From assembly GCF_009931435.1 (NCBI RefSeq), contig NZ_CP043414.1: a DNA stretch of 64,000 bases; one strand, 5' to 3'. Position 1 is the first letter of the stretch; every line of letters begins with the position of its first letter. This stretch comes from Escherichia coli (GTDB taxonomy: Bacteria > Pseudomonadota > Gammaproteobacteria > Enterobacterales > Enterobacteriaceae). Positions 2,962 through 56,440 of this stretch are shown here, one piece after another. The translations under genes and the position numbers were made by a program. The notes below the pieces were generated by a model. That model saw only the letters and a list, made by a program, of their open reading frames with translations, was not told where the DNA came from and ran no database searches.

Positions 2962-5109
2962 ATGAACGTTATTGCAATATTGAATCACATGGGGGTTTAT
3001 TTTAAAGAAGAACCCATCCGTGAACTTCATCGCGCGCTTGAACGTCTGAACTTCCAGATTGTTTACCCGAATGACCGTGACGACTTATTAAAACTGATCG
3101 AAAACAATGCGCGTCTGTGCGGTGTTATTTTTGACTGGGATAAATATAATCTCGAGCTGTGCGAAGAAATTAGCAAAATGAACGAGAACCTGCCGTTGTA
3201 CGCGTTCGCTAATACGTATTCCACTCTCGATGTCAGCCTGAATGACCTGCGTTTACAGATTAGCTTCTTTGAATATGCGCTGGGTGCTGCTGATGATATT
3301 GCTAACAAGATCAAGCAGACCACTGACGAATATATCAACACTATTCTGCCTCCGCTGACCAAAGCACTGTTTAAATATGTTCGTGAAGGTAAATATACTT
3401 TCTGTACTCCTGGTCACATGGGCGGTACTGCATTCCAGAAAAGCCCGGTAGGTAGCCTGTTCTATGATTTCTTTGGTCCGAACACCATGAAATCTGATAT
3501 TTCCATTTCAGTATCTGAACTGGGTTCTCTGCTGGATCACAGTGGTCCACACAAAGAAGCAGAACAGTATATCGCTCGCGTCTTTAACGCAGACCGCAGC
3601 TACATGGTGACCAACGGTACTTCCACTGCGAACAAAATTGTTGGTATGTACTCTGCTCCGGCAGGCAGCACCATTCTGATTGACCGTAACTGCCACAAAT
3701 CGCTGACCCACCTGATGATGATGAGCGATGTTACGCCAATCTATTTCCGCCCGACCCGTAACGCTTACGGTATTCTTGGTGGTATCCCACAGAGTGAATT
3801 CCAGCACGCTACCATTGCTAAGCGCGTAAAAGAAACACCAAACGCGACCTGGCCGGTACATGCCGTAATTACTAACTCAACCTATGATGGTCTGCTGTAC
3901 AACACCGACTTCATCAAGAAAACACTGGATGTAAAATCCATCCACTTTGACTCCGCGTGGGTGCCTTACACCAACTTCTCACCGATTTACGAAGGTAAAT
4001 GCGGTATGAGCGGTGGCCGTGTAGAAGGGAAAGTGATTTACGAAACCCAGTCCACTCACAAACTGCTGGCGGCATTCTCTCAGGCTTCCATGATCCACGT
4101 TAAAGGTGACGTAAACGAAGAAACCTTTAACGAAGCCTACATGATGCACACCACCACCTCTCCGCACTACGGTATCGTGGCGTCCACTGAAACCGCTGCG
4201 GCGATGATGAAAGGTAATGCTGGTAAGCGTCTGATCAACGGTTCCATTGAACGTGCGATCAAGTTCCGTAAAGAGATCAAACGCCTGAGAACGGAATCTG
4301 ATGGCTGGTTCTTTGATGTATGGCAGCCGGATCATATCGATACCACTGAATGCTGGCCGCTGCGTTCTGACAGCTCCTGGCACGGCTTCAAGAACATCGA
4401 CAATGAGCACATGTATCTTGACCCGATTAAAGTTACCCTGCTGACCCCGGGGATGGAAAAAGACGGCACCATGAGCGACTTTGGTATTCCGGCCAGCATC
4501 GTGGCGAAATACCTCGACGAACATGGCATCGTTGTTGAGAAAACCGGCCCGTATAACCTGCTGTTCCTGTTCAGCATCGGTATTGATAAGACCAAAGCAT
4601 TGAGTCTGCTGCGTGCTCTGACTGACTTCAAACGTGCGTTCGACCTGAACCTGCGTGTGAAAAACATGCTGCCGTCTCTGTATCGTGAAGATCCTGAATT
4701 CTATGAAGATATGCGTATTCAGGAACTGGCTCAGAATATCCACAAACTGATTGTTCACCACAATCTGCCGGATCTGATGTATCGCGCATTTGAAGTTCTG
4801 CCGACAATGGTTATGACTCCGTATGCGGCGTTCCAGAAAGAGCTGCACGGTATGACCGAAGAAGTTTACCTCGACGAAATGGTAGGTCGTATTAACGCCA
4901 ATATGATCCTTCCGTATCCGCCGGGAGTTCCTCTGGTAATGCCGGGTGAAATGATCACCGAAGAAAGCCGTCCGGTGCTGGAGTTCCTGCAGATGCTGTG
5001 TGAAATCGGCGCTCACTATCCGGGCTTTGAAACCGATATTCACGGTGCATACCGTCAGGCTGATGGCCGCTATACCGTTAAGGTATTGAAAGAAGAAAGC
5101 AAAAAATAA
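2962..5109 (+). CDS. cadA: Inducible lysine decarboxylase
   Basis: ORF track starts at 2923, but the ATG at 2962 (MNVIAILNHMGVYF...) gives the 715-aa CadA; PLP fold-III decarboxylase motifs (STHKLL). Confidence 0.95.
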   Translation: MNVIAILNHMGVYFKEEPIRELHRALERLNFQIVYPNDRDDLLKLIENNARLCGVIFDWDKYNLELCEEISKMNENLPLYAFANTYSTLDVSLNDLRLQISFFEYALGAADDIANKIKQTTDEYINTILPPLTKALFKYVREGKYTFCTPGHMGGTAFQKSPVGSLFYDFFGPNTMKSDISISVSELGSLLDHSGPHKEAEQYIARVFNADRSYMVTNGTSTANKIVGMYSAPAGSTILIDRNCHKSLTHLMMMSDVTPIYFRPTRNAYGILGGIPQSEFQHATIAKRVKETPNATWPVHAVITNSTYDGLLYNTDFIKKTLDVKSIHFDSAWVPYTNFSPIYEGKCGMSGGRVEGKVIYETQSTHKLLAAFSQASMIHVKGDVNEETFNEAYMMHTTTSPHYGIVASTETAAAMMKGNAGKRLINGSIERAIKFRKEIKRLRTESDGWFFDVWQPDHIDTTECWPLRSDSSWHGFKNIDNEHMYLDPIKVTLLTPGMEKDGTMSDFGIPASIVAKYLDEHGIVVEKTGPYNLLFLFSIGIDKTKALSLLRALTDFKRAFDLNLRVKNMLPSLYREDPEFYEDMRIQELAQNIHKLIVHHNLPDLMYRAFEVLPTMVMTPYAAFQKELHGMTEEVYLDEMVGRINANMILPYPPGVPLVMPGEMITEESRPVLEFLQMLCEIGAHYPGFETDIHGAYRQADGRYTVKVLKEESKK

Positions 5110-33559: not shown

Positions 33560-33715
33560 GCACATGATCGGTAGGCCGGATAAGGCGCTCGCGCCGCATC
33601 CGGCTACGGTGCCGACTGCCTGATGCGACGCTCGCGCGTCTTATCAGGCCTACAAATTCTCGCACCATCCGGCAACGGTGCCTAATGCGACGCTTACCGA
33701 GTCTTATCAGCCCCC
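33560..33715. repeat. BIME/REP cluster of several palindromic units
   Basis: Repeated gcctgatgcgacgc...gtcttatcaggcctac and ggtaggccggataaggcg...ccgcatccggc motifs typical of enterobacterial REP elements. Confidence 0.85.
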
Positions 33716-34351: not shown

Positions 34352-35140
34352 ATGCAAACGATTATCCGCGTCGAACAACTGAGCAAAACCTTCAATCAGC
34401 ATCAGGCGCTGCACGCGGTTGATCTGAACATTCATCACGGTGAAATGGTGGCTCTGCTTGGGCCGTCGGGTTCCGGCAAATCCACCCTTTTACGTCACTT
34501 AAGCGGCCTGATTGTCGGCGATAAAAAGCCAGAATGCCGCGTCGAACTGCTGGGCCGCACCGTCCAGCAAAATGGCCGCCTGGCCCGCGATATCCGCAAA
34601 AGCCGCGCCAACACCGGCTACATCTTCCAACAATTCAACCTGGTGAATCGCCTGAGCGTACTGGAGAACGTGCTGATTGGCGCGCTCGGCAGCACGCCGT
34701 TCTGGCGTACCTGTTTTAGCTGGTTCACCCGCGAGCAGAAACAGCGTGCGTTACAGGCACTGACTCGCGTTGGGATGGTGCACTTTGCCCATCAGCGCGT
34801 TTCCACGCTCTCCGGCGGCCAGCAGCAGCGTGTGGCGATAGCCCGTGCGCTGATGCAGCAGGCGAAGGTGATTCTGGCCGATGAACCCATCGCCTCGCTG
34901 GACCCGGAATCGGCCCGCATCGTGATGGATACCCTGCGCGACATCAACCAGAACGACGGCATCACCGTGGTGGTGACGCTGCATCAGGTGGATTACGCCC
35001 TGCGCTACTGCGAACGCATCGTCGCCCTGCGCCAGGGGCACGTCTTCTACGACGGCAGCAGCCAACAGTTTGATAACGAACGTTTTGACCATCTCTACCG
35101 CAGCATTAACCGCGTCGAAGAGAACGCGAAAGCTGCCTGA
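34352..35140 (+). CDS. phnC: Phosphonate ABC transporter ATP-binding protein
   Basis: 262-aa ORF with Walker A (GPSGSGKST), ABC signature (LSGGQQQR) and Walker B. Confidence 0.95.
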
Positions 35141-35164
35141 CATCCCCATCATTGAGGAAAACGA

Positions 35165-36181
35165 ATGAACGCTAAGATAATTGCCTCGCTGGCCTTCACC
35201 AGCATGTTCAGCCTCAGCACCCTGTTCAGCCCGGCACACGCCGAAGAGCAGGAAAAGGCGCTGAATTTCGGCATTATTTCAACGGAATCACAGCAAAACC
35301 TGAAACCGCAATGGACGCCTTTCCTGCAAGATATGGAGAAGAAACTGGGCGTAAAGGTCAACGCCTTCTTTGCTCCGGACTACGCGGGCATTATCCAGGG
35401 GATGCGCTTCAATAAAGTGGATATCGCCTGGTACGGCAATCTGTCGGCGATGGAAGCGGTGGATCGCGCCAACGGTCAGGTCTTCGCCCAGACGGTCGCG
35501 GCGGATGGATCGCCGGGTTACTGGAGCGTGTTGATCGTCAACAAAGACAGTCCGATCAACAACCTGAACGATCTGCTGGCGAAGCGTAAAGATCTCACCT
35601 TTGGCAATGGCGATCCTAACTCCACCTCTGGCTTCCTCGTCCCCGGCTACTACGTCTTCGCCAAAAACAATATCTCCGCCAGCGACTTCAAGCGCACCGT
35701 CAACGCCGGGCATGAAACCAACGCGCTGGCCGTCGCCAACAAGCAGGTGGATGTGGCGACCAACAACACCGAGAACCTCGACAAGCTGAAAACCTCCGCA
35801 CCGGAGAAGCTCAAAGAACTGAAGGTGATCTGGAAATCGCCGCTGATCCCAGGCGATCCGATCGTCTGGCGCAAAAATCTTTCCGAAACCACCAAAGACA
35901 AGATCTACGACTTCTTTATGAACTACGGCAAAACGCCGGAAGAGAAAGCGGTGCTGGAGCGCCTGGGCTGGGCCCCGTTCCGCGCCTCCAGCGACCTGCA
36001 ACTGGTGCCAATTCGCCAGCTCGCGCTGTTTAAAGAGATGCAGGGCGTGAAAGGCAATAAGGGACTGAATGAGCAGGACAAGCTGGCAAAAACCACCGCC
36101 ATTCAGGCGCAACTGGATGATTTGGACCGCCTGAACAACGCGTTAAGCGCAATGAGTTCGGTGAGTAAAGCGGTGCAGTAA
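35165..36181 (+). CDS. phnD: Phosphonate ABC transporter periplasmic binding protein
   Basis: 338-aa ORF with N-terminal signal peptide; matches PhnD. Confidence 0.95.
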   Translation: MNAKIIASLAFTSMFSLSTLFSPAHAEEQEKALNFGIISTESQQNLKPQWTPFLQDMEKKLGVKVNAFFAPDYAGIIQGMRFNKVDIAWYGNLSAMEAVDRANGQVFAQTVAADGSPGYWSVLIVNKDSPINNLNDLLAKRKDLTFGNGDPNSTSGFLVPGYYVFAKNNISASDFKRTVNAGHETNALAVANKQVDVATNNTENLDKLKTSAPEKLKELKVIWKSPLIPGDPIVWRKNLSETTKDKIYDFFMNYGKTPEEKAVLERLGWAPFRASSDLQLVPIRQLALFKEMQGVKGNKGLNEQDKLAKTTAIQAQLDDLDRLNNALSAMSSVSKAVQ

Positions 36182-36187
36182 TGTGCT

Positions 36188-36295
36188 CGATCGGTCCCCT
36201 CTCCCTTGAGGGAGAGGGTTAGGGTGAGGGGGGAAATACGCACGCTGATGCCCTCACCCCGGCCCTCTCCTACAGGGAGAGGGAGAAAACATTAA
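36188..36295. repeat. GC-rich nested palindromic element between phnD and phnE (family not assigned)
   Basis: Three inverted-repeat pairs: cccctctccc/gggagaggg, agggtgagggg/ccctcacccc, ccctctcc/gggagaggg. Confidence 0.6.
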
Positions 36296-36307
36296 ACGGA
36301 GCCAAAC

Positions 36308-37087
36308 ATGCAAACCATCACCATCGCCCCACCCAAGCGCAGCTGGTTCTCGATCTTCAGCTGGGCCGTTGTTCTCGCCGTACTGGTCGTCTCGTGGCAG
36401 GGCGCGGAAATGGCCCCGCTCACGCTGATTAAAGACGGCGGCAACATGGCGACGTTCGCCGCCGACTTCTTCCCGCCCGATTTCAGCCAGTGGCAGGATT
36501 ACCTCACCGAAATGGCCGTCACGCTGCAAATCGCCGTCTGGGGCACTGCGCTGGCAGTCGTTCTCTCCATCCCCTTCGGCCTGATGAGCGCCGAAAACCT
36601 GGTGCCGTGGTGGGTTTACCAGCCCGTTCGCCGCCTGATGGACGCCTGCCGCGCCATTAACGAGATGGTCTTCGCCATGCTGTTCGTGGTCGCCGTCGGT
36701 CTCGGTCCGTTCGCTGGCGTACTGGCGCTGTTTATCCACACCACCGGCGTGCTCTCCAAACTGCTTTCCGAAGCGGTAGAAGCAATTGAACCCGGCCCGG
36801 TGGAAGGTATTCGCGCCACTGGTGCCAACAAGCTCGAAGAGATCCTCTATGGCGTGCTGCCGCAGGTGATGCCGCTGCTGATCTCCTACTCCCTCTATCG
36901 CTTCGAATCCAACGTCCGTTCGGCCACCGTTGTTGGCATGGTCGGCGCTGGCGGGATCGGCGTCACGCTGTGGGAAGCGATTCGCGGTTTCCAGTTCCAG
37001 CAAACCTGCGCCCTGATGGTGCTGATTATCGTCACGGTCAGCCTGCTGGATTTCCTCTCTCAACGGTTGCGTAAGCACTTTATCTGA
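36308..37087 (+). CDS. phnE: Phosphonate ABC transporter permease, intact reading frame
   Basis: Uninterrupted 259-aa polytopic membrane ORF matching PhnE. Confidence 0.9.
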
Positions 37088-37107
37088 TAAGCGAGGCATT
37101 GATAGCT

Positions 37108-37833
37108 ATGCACTTGTCTACACATCCGACCAGCTACCCAACACGCTATCAGGAGATAGCCGCAAAACTTGAGCAGGAGCTTCGTCAACACTACCGCTGC
37201 GGCGACTATCTTCCCGCCGAGCATCAACTGGCGGCACGCTTTGAGGTGAATCGCCACACCCTGCGCCGCGCCATCGACCAACTGGTGGAAAAAGGCTGGG
37301 TACAGCGCCGTCAGGGCGTCGGCGTGCTGGTGCTGATGCGCCCGTTCGATTACCCGCTCAACGCCCAGGCGCGTTTTAGCCAGAACCTGCTGGATCAGGG
37401 TAGCCATCCCACCAGCGAAAAACTGCTGTCGGTGCTGCGCCCGGCCTCCGGCCACGTCGCTGACGCGCTGGGGATAACCGAGGGCGAGAACGTTATCCAC
37501 CTGCGCACCCTGCGTCGGGTCAACGGCGTCGCACTCTGTTTAATCGACCACTACTTTGCGGACCTCACTCTCTGGCCGACGCTGCAACGCTTCGACAGCG
37601 GCTCGCTGCACGATTTTTTGCACGAGCAAACGGGAATTGCGCTGCGCCGCAGCCAGACGCGGATCAGCGCCCGCCGCGCCCAGGCCAAAGAGTGCCAGCG
37701 TCTTGAAATTCCGAATATGTCGCCGCTGCTGTGCGTGCGCACCCTTAACCACCGTGACGGTGAAAGCAGCCCGGCGGAGTACTCCGTCAGCCTGACGCGC
37801 GCCGACATGATTGAATTCACCATGGAGCACTGA
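37108..37833 (+). CDS. phnF: GntR-family repressor of the phn operon
   Basis: 241 aa from the ATG at 37108 (MHLSTHPTSYPTRYQEIAAK...); N-terminal GntR HTH. Confidence 0.9.
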   Translation: MHLSTHPTSYPTRYQEIAAKLEQELRQHYRCGDYLPAEHQLAARFEVNRHTLRRAIDQLVEKGWVQRRQGVGVLVLMRPFDYPLNAQARFSQNLLDQGSHPTSEKLLSVLRPASGHVADALGITEGENVIHLRTLRRVNGVALCLIDHYFADLTLWPTLQRFDSGSLHDFLHEQTGIALRRSQTRISARRAQAKECQRLEIPNMSPLLCVRTLNHRDGESSPAEYSVSLTRADMIEFTMEH

Positions 37834-38286
37834 ATGCACGCAGATACCGCGACCCGCCAGCACTGGATGTCCGTGCTGGCGCACAGCCAACCGGCTGAAC
37901 TGGCTAACCGCCTTAAAGCGCTAAACATCACCGCCGACTATGACATGATCCGCGCCGCCGAAACCGGCCTGGTACAGATTCAGGCGCGAATGGGTGGCAC
38001 CGGCGAACGCTTTTTTGCTGGCGACGCTACGCTCACCCGCGCCGCTGTACGCCTTACTGACGGCACGCTCGGCTACAGCTGGGTGCTGGGGCGCGACAAA
38101 CAGCACGCCGAACGCTGCGCGCTGATTGACGCGCTGATGCAGCAATCTCGCCACTTTCAAAACTTATCAGAAACCCTTATTGCCCCGCTGGACGCTGACC
38201 GTATGGCACGCATTGCCGCACGCCAGGCCGAAGTGAACGCCAGTCGGGTCGACTTCTTTACGATGGTTCGCGGAGACAACGCATGA
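37834..38286 (+). CDS. phnG: C-P lyase core complex subunit PhnG
   Basis: 150-aa ORF starting immediately after the phnF stop (tgaATG). Confidence 0.9.
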
Positions 38287-38867
38287 CCCTGGAAACCGCT
38301 TTTATGCTTCCCGTGCAGGATGCCCAGCACAGTTTTCGTCGCCTGTTAAAGGCCATGAGCGAGCCGGGCGTGATTGTCGCCCTGCATCAACTCAAACGCG
38401 GCTGGCAGCCGCTGAATATCGCCACCACCAGCGTGCTGCTGACGCTGGCCGATAACGACACGCCGGTGTGGCTTTCTGCGCCATTAAGTAACGATATCGT
38501 CAGCCAGAGCCTGCGTTTTCATACCAACGCGCCGCTGGTCAATCAGCCGGAACAGGCGACCTTCGCAGTGACGGATGAGGCGATTGCCAGCGAGCAGCTC
38601 AACGCCCTTTCCATCGGCACCGCCGTTGCGCCGGAAGCCGGTGCGACGTTGATTTTACAGGTCACCAGCCTGAGCGGCGGACGCATGCTGCGCCTCACCG
38701 GCGCGGGTATTGCCGAAGAACGGATGATCGCCCCGCAACTGCCGGAGTGCATTCTGCACGAACTCACCGAGCGCCCGCACCCGTTCCCGCTCGGCATCGA
38801 CCTGATCCTGACCTGCGGCGAGCGCCTGCTGGCTATCCCGCGAACCACTCATGTGGAGGTGTGCTGA
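38283..38867 (+). CDS. phnH: C-P lyase core complex subunit PhnH
   Basis: 194-aa ORF with 4-nt overlap to phnG. Confidence 0.9.
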
Positions 38868-40769: not shown

Positions 40770-41524
40770 ATCAACCGTTACTTTCGGTCAATAACCTGAC
40801 CCACCTCTACGCACCGGGCAAAGGCTTCAGCGACGTTTCTTTTGATTTATGGCCGGGGGAAGTGCTGGGCATCGTCGGGGAATCCGGTTCCGGGAAGACC
40901 ACGCTGCTGAAATCAATCTCCGCGCGCCTGACGCCGCAGCAGGGGGAGATTCGCTATGAAAACCGTTCCCTCTATGGCATGAGCGAAGCCGACCGCCGCC
41001 GTTTACTGCGCACCGAATGGGGCGTGGTACATCAGCATCCGCTCGACGGCCTGCGTCGCCAGGTCTCGGCAGGCGGCAATATCGGCGAACGGCTGATGGC
41101 GACCGGGGCGCGTCATTACGGCGATATTCGCGCCACCGCGCAGAAGTGGCTGGAAGAGGTGGAGATTCCCGCCAACCGGATCGACGACCTGCCGACCACT
41201 TTTTCCGGCGGTATGCAGCAGCGTTTGCAGATTGCCCGCAACCTGGTGACGCATCCGAAGCTGGTGTTTATGGATGAACCGACCGGCGGGCTGGATGTAT
41301 CAGTGCAAGCGCGCCTGCTCGATCTGCTGCGCGGTCTGGTGGTGGAGCTGAACCTGGCGGTGGTGATTGTCACCCACGATCTGGGCGTCGCCCGCCTGCT
41401 GGCGGACCGTTTGCTGGTGATGAAGCAAGGGCAAGTGGTGGAGAGTGGGTTAACCGACCGCGTGCTCGACGACCCGCATCACCCGTATACCCAGCTGCTG
41501 GTGTCATCGGTTTTGCAGAATTGA
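40766..41524 (+). CDS. phnK: C-P lyase-associated ABC-type ATPase PhnK
   Basis: 252 aa from the ATG at 40766 (MNQPLLSVNNL...); Walker A GESGSGKTT. Confidence 0.9.
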   Translation: MNQPLLSVNNLTHLYAPGKGFSDVSFDLWPGEVLGIVGESGSGKTTLLKSISARLTPQQGEIRYENRSLYGMSEADRRRLLRTEWGVVHQHPLDGLRRQVSAGGNIGERLMATGARHYGDIRATAQKWLEEVEIPANRIDDLPTTFSGGMQQRLQIARNLVTHPKLVFMDEPTGGLDVSVQARLLDLLRGLVVELNLAVVIVTHDLGVARLLADRLLVMKQGQVVESGLTDRVLDDPHHPYTQLLVSSVLQN

Positions 41525-41535
41525 GCCTTGCTTGT

Positions 41536-41690
41536 GTCGGGTGGCGCTGCGCTTACCCGACCTACGGTACATGTAGGCCGGATAAGGCGTAGCCGCCATC
41601 CGGCTTATCAGGCCTACAAAACCATCGTAATACATTGATATTGATTCATTTGTAGGCCGGATAAGGCGCAGCCGCCATCCGGCAAAAACA
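41536..41690. repeat. BIME/REP cluster inside the phn operon, between phnK and phnL
   Basis: Tandem/inverted copies of gtaggccggataaggcg...ccgccatccggc and ttatcaggcctac REP motifs. Confidence 0.85.
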
Positions 41691-41703
41691 CGAAGAGGCC
41701 AAA

Positions 41704-42384
41704 ATGATCCGCGTCGAAAACGTCAGTAAAACCTTCATCCTGCACCAACAAAACGGCGTGCGCCTGCCCGTCTTACAACGCGCCTCGCTCACCGTCAACG
41801 CGGGCGAATGCGTGGTGCTCCACGGCCATTCCGGCAGCGGCAAATCAACCCTGCTGCGCTCGCTGTACGCTAACTATCTGCCCGACGAAGGGCAAATTCA
41901 GATCAAACATGGTGACGAGTGGGTAGACCTGGTCACCGCGCCAGCGCGCAAAGTGGTGGAAATCCGCAAAACCACCGTCGGCTGGGTGAGCCAGTTTCTG
42001 CGGGTCATCCCGCGTATTTCGGCGCTGGAAGTGGTAATGCAGCCGCTGCTCGATACCGGCGTTCCGCGTGAAGCCTGCGCCGCTAAAGCCGCCCGTCTGC
42101 TCACCCGCCTGAACGTGCCGGAACGTCTGTGGCACCTGGCGCCATCGACCTTCTCCGGCGGCGAACAGCAGCGCGTCAACATCGCGCGCGGCTTTATCGT
42201 CGATTACCCCATTCTGCTGCTCGACGAACCTACTGCCTCGCTGGACGCCAAAAACAGCGCCGCGGTGGTGGAACTGATCCGCGAAGCTAAAACCCGCGGC
42301 GCAGCCATCGTCGGCATCTTCCACGACGAAGCCGTACGCAATGACGTCGCCGACCGCCTCCACCCAATGGGAGCCTCTGCATGA
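41704..42384 (+). CDS. phnL: C-P lyase-associated ABC-type ATPase PhnL
   Basis: 226-aa ORF with Walker [10 protein letters not shown]. Confidence 0.9.
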
Positions 42385-44496: not shown

Positions 44497-45255
44497 ATGA
44501 GCCTGACCCTCACACTTACTGGCACTGGCGGCGCACAGGGTGTTCCCGCATGGGGCTGTGAGTGCGCGGCCTGCGCCAGAGCGCGGCGCTCACCGCAGTA
44601 TCGCCGCCAGCCATGCAGCGGCGTCGTGAAGTTTAACGACGCGATCACCCTGATCGACGCCGGACTGCACGATCTCGCCGATCGCTGGTCGCCCGGATCG
44701 TTCCAGCAGTTTTTGCTGACGCACTACCATATGGATCACGTGCAGGGGCTGTTTCCGCTGCGCTGGGGCGTGGGCGATTCGATCCCGGTCTACGGCCCGC
44801 CGGATGAACAGGGCTGCGACGATCTGTTTAAACATCCGGGCCTGCTTGATTTCAGCCACACGGTGGAGCCATTTGTGATGTTTGATTTGCAGGGATTACA
44901 GGTCACGCCGCTGCCGCTCAACCATTCGAAACTCACTTTCGGCTATCTACTGGAAACGGCACATAGCCGGGTGGCGTGGCTGTCTGACACCGCAGGCCTG
45001 CCGGAAAAAACGGTGAAATTTTTATGCAATAATCAGCCACAGGTAATGGTGATTGATTGCTGCCACCCACCGCGCGCGAATTCGCCACGCAATCACTGTG
45101 ATTTAAACACCGTGCTGGCGCTGAATGAAGTTATCCGCTCGCCGTGCGTGGTTCTGACACATATCAGCCATCAGTTTGATGCGTGGCTGATGGAGAACAT
45201 ACTGCCGTCAGGGTTTGAGGCGGGGTTTGATGGGATGGAGATTGGGGTGGAGTGA
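44497..45255 (+). CDS. phnP: Metallo-beta-lactamase-fold cyclic phosphodiesterase PhnP
   Basis: 252-aa ORF with HxHxDH motif ([10 protein letters not shown]). Confidence 0.9.
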
Positions 45256-45289
45256 TGGGTGAGGGGCGATGCCTGCTCTAAACTCAACA

Positions 45290-56398: not shown

Positions 56399-56440
56399 TG
56401 TAGGCCTGATAAGACGCGGCAAGCGTCGCATCAGGCATCC
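56399..56440. repeat. Single REP element between yjcO and gltP
   Basis: gtaggcctgataagacgcggcaagcgtcgcatcaggc matches the REP consensus. Confidence 0.8.

Follow-up and report, generated by a model that had tools for sequence, protein, structure and literature searches.

An inverted BoxC (PIT/TMECO) pair in the phnD-phnE spacer of Escherichia coli, with a possible role as an mRNA-stabilizing hairpin

What is the GC-rich palindromic element that separates phnD from phnE in this strain of Escherichia coli, and might it contribute to the expression of the operon that carries it? The phn genes occupy the + strand of the window (the whole 64,000-nucleotide stretch of DNA that was analysed) in the order phnC (34352-35140), phnD (35165-36181) and phnE (36308-37087), followed by phnF and onward. 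The phnD stop codon (TAA, 36179-36181) and the phnE ATG at 36308 bound a spacer that spans 36182-36307, and these coordinates bear out the 126-bp length given in the original prediction. In this window phnE is an intact ORF of 259 amino acids, whereas the MG1655 record flags the gene as a pseudogene.

The nested, GC-rich inverted repeats that had been described in the spacer were recovered by a repeat search at a level far above chance. A perfect 10-nt inverted pair (36197-36206 with 36209-36218, 100% complementary) joins CCCTCTCCCT to AGGGAGAGGG in a hairpin at 36197-36218, and a perfect 8-nt pair (36263-36270 with 36276-36283, also 100% complementary) joins CCCTCTCC to GGAGAGGG in a second hairpin at 36263-36283. 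Outer arms then pair the left half of the element with the right half (36204-36230 with 36251-36277, and 36197-36211 with 36269-36283), including GGGTGAGGG (36222-36230) opposite CCCTCACCC (36251-36259). All three copies of GGGAGAGGG in the 64-kb window reside within the element (0.15 expected from shuffles), as do two of the three copies of GGGTGAGGG (0.33 expected).

These features identify the element, with near certainty on sequence grounds, as an inverted pair of BoxC units, wherein the coding strand holds a type-A unit and the opposite strand a type-B unit, both of which direct their 3' ends towards a 20-nt centre and carry 5' flanks typical of the family. This single E. coli repeat has received three names, having been described first as BoxC, then as the PIT element and then as the TMECO (Bergler 1992; the Bachellier surveys of the 1990s; Hoyne et al. 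2000; Holder et al. 2015, PMC4666352). The published TMECO consensus is 5'-CCCTCNCCC N3-6 GGGNGAGGG N3 GGGNGAGGG-3', in which a second loop of TTA denotes type A and one of CCG denotes type B, and MG1655 has five sites with two inverted units, each composed of one A and one B (PMC4666352). A regular-expression scan of the 64-kb window yielded two units only, one exact (36197-36230, + strand) and one with a single substitution (36251-36283, - strand), which are inverted and 20 nt apart.

The type-A unit reads CCCTCTCCC TTGA GGGAGAGGG TTA GGGTGAGGG, with its TTA loop at 36219-36221. It comprises a local hairpin of 9-10 bp and a third G-rich block, and is identical to MG1655 TMECO #2 save for the base that follows the unit. 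On the - strand, the type-B unit reads CCCTCTCCC TGTA GGAGAGGG CCG GGGTGAGGG, with its CCG loop on the complement of 36260-36262, and it matches MG1655 TMECO #1 and #4. Its one mismatch to the consensus is a T at window position 36271 where relatives have C, and the strains 2020CK-00188 and AST215 carry the unmutated form. Between the two units lies the central spacer GGGAAATACGCACGCTGATG (36231-36250), which is the apical loop of the predicted long hairpin and resembles sequence found in the phnD-phnE pairs of other genera. Thus, the three-block consensus, the TTA and CCG second loops, the published A+B inverted pairing and the intergenic location are all shared with known BoxC representatives. 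Nothing essential differs, apart from the substitution in unit B, the position of this copy inside an operon and directly after a stop codon, and the absence of a phnD-phnE copy from MG1655, the reference strain of the BoxC papers.

The boundaries of the repeated unit were defined by a three-way alignment of the copies in the window, at hrpB-mrcB of MG1655 and in strain 21AR0303. Similarity begins with TGTGCTCGATCGGT and ends with GAGAAAAC, and therefore the composite element comprises 109 bp (36182-36290) and abuts the phnD stop codon. The predicted location was accordingly right, and the predicted extent (36188-36295) gives way to this slightly wider element. The nearest MG1655 relative lies away from phn, at hrpB-mrcB (the pair of TMECO #1 and #2), and its megablast match to query positions 1-109 has 92.7% identity over 107-109 bp with both flanks included. 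The 5' flank of the type-A unit, TGTGCTCGATCGGTC (36182-36196, + strand), has related counterparts of the form …GTGCTC/GAGCAC…GGTC before the type-A units examined in MG1655, and in 21AR0303 it is inverted along with its unit. The 5' flank of the type-B unit (36284-36290; GTTTTCT on the - strand, AGAAAAC on the + strand) forms the conserved end of the alignment. Most type-B units that were examined in MG1655 follow a TTTTCT- or TTTTCC-like flank; at fepB-entC the flank is GTTCTGCC. Two flank types are found across eight further MG1655 units, where type A has a related 5' flank of ~15 nt and type B has a TTTTCT-like 5' flank.

Across E. coli genomes, a 93-bp query taken from the element matched 45,968 places in total, with a median of 9 per genome and a maximum of 22. 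The original prediction had left the family unassigned and had offered a mobile miniature repeat, an mRNA-stabilizing structure or a processing site as possibilities, of which the latter two are plausible as hypotheses; other genomic copies had been proposed as the check on a repeat-family interpretation. Because the element is not unique, the repeat-family reading is supported, and the BoxC consensus match and the close relative at hrpB-mrcB give the family its name. Moreover, Table S8 of PMC4666352 lists a phnD-phnE pair in strain E24377A as TMECO #106/#107 (4,655,133-4,655,217), whose position between phnE and phnD we confirmed from the annotation, and so both family and locus were already on record. 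The element is therefore real but ordinary: its family and its configuration were both known, and its locus had been catalogued. Our literature searches found no paper on BoxC or TMECO later than 2015, and nothing relevant for phnD, phnE and REP.

Two other sites bear on the distribution of the family. The intra-operon nrdD-nrdG spacer of strain SMS-3-5 carries a type-A unit identical in sequence to that of the window (TMECO #158 of the published table). In the window, only a single GGGTGAGGGG block (45255-45266) immediately follows the phnP stop codon, whereas the phnP-yjdP spacer of MG1655 has a complete type-A TMECO (#22) with a seemingly degenerate partner, which reveals a second variable BoxC site at the opposite end of the phn operon.

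The spacer element is distinct from the other palindromic repeats nearby, as had been claimed. REP patterns match elsewhere in the window (~33577-33631, 41579-41668 and 56423-56436) but not in 36182-36307, where the REP consensus (GCC[G/T]GATGCG[G/A]CG, with CGGATAAGGCG-type arms) is absent. The comparison with MG1655 that the original prediction proposed returned a different repeat in place of the same element. The MG1655 spacer is 105 bp in length and carries a REP/BIME pair with its REP arms (3742-3836 of the extracted NC_000913.3 region), and resembles the window only in the stop codon and in the ~12 nt that immediately precede the phnE ATG (CGGAGCCAAAC). Thus, CGGAGC…ATG is the sole spacer segment common to the BoxC and REP alleles. 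A suggested link between the element and variation in the phnE reading frame is not supported, as MG1655, in which phnE is frameshifted, carries the REP allele and not the BoxC element.

Although the sequences of the two families are unrelated, both are GC-rich, palindromic, dispersed repeats that form inverted pairs and are transcribed within operons. At this locus they also take the same position relative to the phnD stop codon and the phnE ribosome-binding site, and the MG1655 allele folds at -50.5 kcal/mol. REP elements are mobilized by enzymes of the RAYT family, whereas we know of no mobilizing enzyme or cognate transposase for BoxC. Further along the window, a 179-bp spacer (41525-41703) between ORFs that end at 41524 and start at 41704 contains several REP-type units (GTAGGCCGGATAAGGCG…), and the phn operon of this strain therefore has BoxC at one junction and REPs at another.

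Similarities to MITE-like elements such as ERIC/IRU and Correia/NEMIS are also evident. Like these, the BoxC pair is short (~110 bp) and non-coding, has long inverted arms and many copies, and is met in both orientations at one site across strains; it differs in that single BoxC units also occur alone. No target-site duplication could be recognized at the three junction pairs compared (those of the window, hrpB-mrcB and reversed 21AR0303 copies), and no empty site was identified in E. coli to serve as a reference. The presence of flanked copies in both orientations at phnD-phnE suggests that the element may be mobile.

The spacer is highly variable within the species. Among 5,417 E. coli genomes that possess the locus, ~3,874 carry the K-12-type REP allele and 354 (6.5%) carry the full BoxC pair. 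At least 80% of a 426-bp query is matched in 1,338 genomes, and subtraction of the 354 full pairs leaves ~984 (~18%) with deletion remnants in the forward orientation. Other alleles, including the reversed remnant of 21AR0303, are present in at most ~205 of the 5,417 genomes, a figure that is an upper bound because forward palindromic remnants also align at ~80% with the reversed allele, which hence cannot be counted by its own query. Therefore, REP and BoxC, two unrelated families, alternate at one site within E. coli (~3,874 REP and ~1,338 BoxC-derived alleles).

The remnants of the BoxC pair are spacers of 60-67 bp that have been cut at internal direct repeats. A repeat search of the window and the comparison of alleles both point to a 15-nt direct repeat with a spacing of 65, whose left copy, CCTTGAGGGAGAGGG (36204-36218, + strand), is the left endpoint of a 65-bp deletion in other strains, and whose right copy is CCTACAGGGAGAGGG (36269-36283, + strand). 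The 61-bp allele of strain UTAK-18 is the sequence of the window minus exactly the 65 bp between these copies. A 60-bp allele results from deletion between two CCCTCTCCC copies, and a 67-bp allele from a 59-bp deletion at GGG microhomology, while an 89-bp allele is a deletion variant of the REP allele. The 64-bp allele of 21AR0303 (451-514 of the extracted locus) is a BoxC hairpin remnant with a CCCTCGCCCC variant and with both family flanks reversed relative to the window, which suggests either an independent insertion or a flip of the whole element. The E. coli genomes yielded at least eight different spacer alleles in total, and every one examined keeps a hairpin (-23 to -68 kcal/mol). The deletion alleles fit the 'palindrome effect' that, together with elevated local variability, has been reported at TMECO loci (PMC4666352).

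The RNA fold that the original prediction proposed as a check gave a stable hairpin. The + strand spacer RNA has a minimum free energy of -67.9 kcal/mol, compared with a mean of -44.6 kcal/mol for shuffled sequences (z = -6.2; none of 200 shuffles as good), and the - strand folds at -64.2 kcal/mol (z = -5.1). On the phn mRNA, the A arm is predicted to pair with the B arm to form a long hairpin of ~32 bp with small bulges (36195-36286, + strand; -62.8 kcal/mol for the prefix that ends at 36286), in which helices of 12, 11 and 9 bp are separated by single-nucleotide bulges. An alternative fold consists of three local hairpins, whose energies sum to -53.4 kcal/mol. With 13 nt between the phnD stop codon and the strong stem, and 21 nt between that stem and the phnE ATG, the ribosome-binding site is left free, and both the Shine-Dalgarno sequence (GGAG, 36298-36301) and the start codon (36308-36310; together 36298-36310, + strand) lie outside the stem. 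Paired changes in the arms are uninformative with regard to the long hairpin, because the arms are copies of one repeat family and are near-identical across loci.

The minimum-energy structure adds a weak outer helix of 6 bp between UGUGCUC (36182-36188) and GAGCCA (36299-36304), which overlaps the phnE Shine-Dalgarno sequence. The predicted structures of the 61- and 67-bp alleles contain this helix as well, and that of the 60-bp allele contains it with a one-base shift; the helix may be due to chance. A search of the element for sigma-70-like promoters detected none. No Rfam 15 family matched the spacer at its gathering threshold; at a permissive threshold there were chance matches only (15-26 bits versus thresholds of 39-168), namely to eukaryotic miRNA hairpins and to one CRISPR repeat model.

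The explanation that best accounts for the locus overall, and that we consider probably correct, combines the identity of the BoxC pair with a transcribed hairpin that would stabilize mRNA and with DNA that is prone to slippage. In this mechanism, the element would be transcribed within the phnC-P mRNA and fold into a very stable hairpin, which would block 3'-to-5' exonucleases as REP hairpins do downstream of binding-protein genes in other ABC-transporter operons. Such a block could stabilize the upstream phnCD segment relative to the downstream cistrons and thereby influence how much PhnD is made relative to the downstream products. Simultaneously, the palindrome as DNA would readily undergo replication slippage from one internal direct repeat to the other, which would generate the deletion alleles.

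The stabilizing function is the more tentative part of this proposal, and it is drawn by analogy with REP hairpins. To our knowledge, no RNA-level function has been demonstrated for BoxC. A REP hairpin that impedes 3'-to-5' decay at malE-malF was reportedly described by Newbury et al. in 1987. REPs are documented stabilizers of mRNA 3' ends that act by impeding 3'-to-5' decay (PMC10100675). Arguing against such a role for BoxC, earlier reporter studies of PIT elements detected neither promoter nor terminator activity, nor any influence on RNA polymerase (as summarized in PMC4666352), and in the survey by Holder et al. the TMECOs were not biased in position or function with respect to genes or operons (PMC4666352). 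Nor is the retention of a hairpin in the deletion alleles independent evidence of selection, because slippage inside a palindrome yields hairpins mechanically. The main support for the proposed stabilizer comes from other species, in which a stem is kept at the phnD-phnE junction and is supplied by unrelated sequences.

A scan based on PhnD with one genome per species was used to collect these spacers, and the best 80 of 309 relatives were kept, of which 79 had an assignable phnD-phnE spacer. Although PhnD is clearly encoded by E. coli, no Escherichia is among the 80, presumably owing to the way in which these were selected from the 309, and the survey thus excludes the other species of the genus. 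BoxC-like units are present in 41 of the 79 spacers (Enterobacter, Leclercia, Lelliottia, Kluyvera, Buttiauxella, Huaxiibacter, Silvania, Pseudenterobacter and Pseudocitrobacter), REP-like units in 30 (Citrobacter, Salmonella arizonae and diarizonae, and Cedecea) and a private GC-rich hairpin in 6 (Atlantibacter, Enterobacillus and Vibrio), and the remaining 2, which are both short (22-23 nt), have no hairpin. Within this same set from the best 80 of 309 relatives, the folding z-score is below -2 in 73 of 79 spacers, and the median distance from the stop codon to a strong stem is 3-7 nt, with ~21 nt left between the end of the stem and the phnE start. Where BoxC pairs occur in these other species, the A-first, B-first and divergent arrangements are about equally frequent, and hence only their palindromic character is common to them.

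Several of these spacers have architectures of their own. Those of Buttiauxella izardii and Leclercia adecarboxylata contain tandem arrays of BoxC-derived half units, with periods of 36 bp and ~42-46 bp and 3.6-4.4 copies, and that of Pseudenterobacter timonensis contains a 38-bp array of a different hairpin unit beside a BoxC unit (3538-3695, 3540-3695 and 3576-3738 of the three extracted loci, respectively). In Pseudocitrobacter faecalis and P. vendiensis, the phn operon has 92-100% nucleotide identity to the window from phnC onward and 76-78% upstream of phnC (compared with window positions 34450-38700). The P. vendiensis sequence is 95-100% identical in all but one 250-nt interval, and is overall closer to the window than K-12 is (95.5%). 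These sequence comparisons point to horizontal transfer of the whole phn operon. BLAST summary figures had raised the possibility of a recombination breakpoint between E. coli and Pseudocitrobacter at the element itself, but sliding-window identity, which drops upstream of phnC, ruled this out. The P. faecalis spacer (251 bp) holds two tandem BoxC pairs, and that of P. vendiensis is a 61-bp remnant identical to the one in E. coli UTAK-18.

One reading of this survey is that the phnD-phnE junction has been under long-term selection for a strong transcribed hairpin, such that BoxC, REP/BIME and private hairpins serve as interchangeable cassettes. We regard this as possible but rather unlikely, and the pattern may reflect no more than a preference of the repeat families for permissive spacers or for insertion sites where a hairpin already exists. 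The main rival to the stabilizing role is accordingly a functionless and unstable repeat, whether selfish or neutral, in which BoxC pairs would have spread into permissive intergenic DNA and the hairpins found across species would reflect insertion preference and slippage bias rather than selection. This account, to which we give about the same doubtful standing, agrees with the ease with which the spacer is replaced within one species (by REP, by BoxC in either orientation or by remnants), with the two species whose 22-23-nt spacers lack a hairpin, and with the published surveys in which no functional bias was seen (PMC4666352). It also agrees with the fate of the pair in E. coli, where only 6.5% of genomes keep it in full and ~18% have deleted most of it. 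What it accommodates less readily is that 77 of 79 species (from the best 80 of 309 relatives) keep a stable stem in one and the same position, that Atlantibacter, Enterobacillus and Vibrio do so with a private hairpin rather than a repeat family, and that every E. coli allele examined has a hairpin.

A second alternative, which we consider improbable, places the activity of the element in the DNA, where an intrastrand purine-motif triplex or a cruciform would have local genome instability as its main consequence, a property that Holder et al. proposed for TMECOs. Oligonucleotides of type A and type B do form stable intrastrand purine-motif triplexes in vitro, as judged by CD and NMR, but the triplex was undetected by DMS footprinting in vivo, and the duplex competes it out (PMC4666352). 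The 65- and 59-bp deletions that leave a hairpin, in the manner of the 'palindrome effect', and the eight or more spacer alleles of E. coli are in keeping with such instability. However, instability explains the diversity of alleles and not the hairpin at the same position in 77 of 79 species, and because all three orientations of the units occur, neither strand is consistently the G-rich one.

More improbable still is a role in modulating translation or transcription, in which the nearby stem would stall ribosomes at the phnD stop codon or act as a partial transcription attenuator. The stem begins 13 nt after the stop codon here (and at the shorter median distance of 3-7 nt in other species), and REPs with a stable stem within 15 nt of a stop codon are said, in work by Liang, Rudd and Deutscher in 2015, to cause ribosome stalling. 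Attenuation is disfavoured by the absence of a U-tract or any terminator-like site on either strand in 35900-36600 (the stem is followed by AGAAAACAUUAAAC on the + strand) and by the lack of terminator activity of PIT elements in reporter assays (as summarized in PMC4666352). Stalling is also considered less likely, as it would be expected to lower PhnD.

The least probable alternative is an RNase III processing site, at which cleavage of the near-perfect ~32-bp duplex between the A and B arms would separate phnCD from phnE-P: the 12-, 11- and 9-bp helices with single-nucleotide bulges of the predicted long hairpin favour it, and ~32 bp is within the length range of double-stranded RNase III substrates, but the stems of most E. 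coli alleles and many other species (remnants and REPs) are only 9-15 bp and thus too short, and co-transcriptional folding forms the local hairpins first.

The main value of these findings is that the question of identity is closed, in that the nested palindrome proves to be a textbook BoxC/TMECO pair, and its phnD-phnE locus had already been catalogued. If the presence of flanked elements in both orientations at one site has been read correctly, then BoxC pairs would be actively mobile. The alternation of REP and BoxC within one species, together with the deep conservation of a hairpin at this junction, makes the locus a good test bed for BoxC function. The phnD-phnE spacer thus offers a convenient natural experiment on whether BoxC has a function at the RNA level. 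If the junction hairpin is indeed selected, this would be the first physiological role for BoxC, as a 3'-end protector or as a setter of stoichiometry in an ABC-transporter operon.
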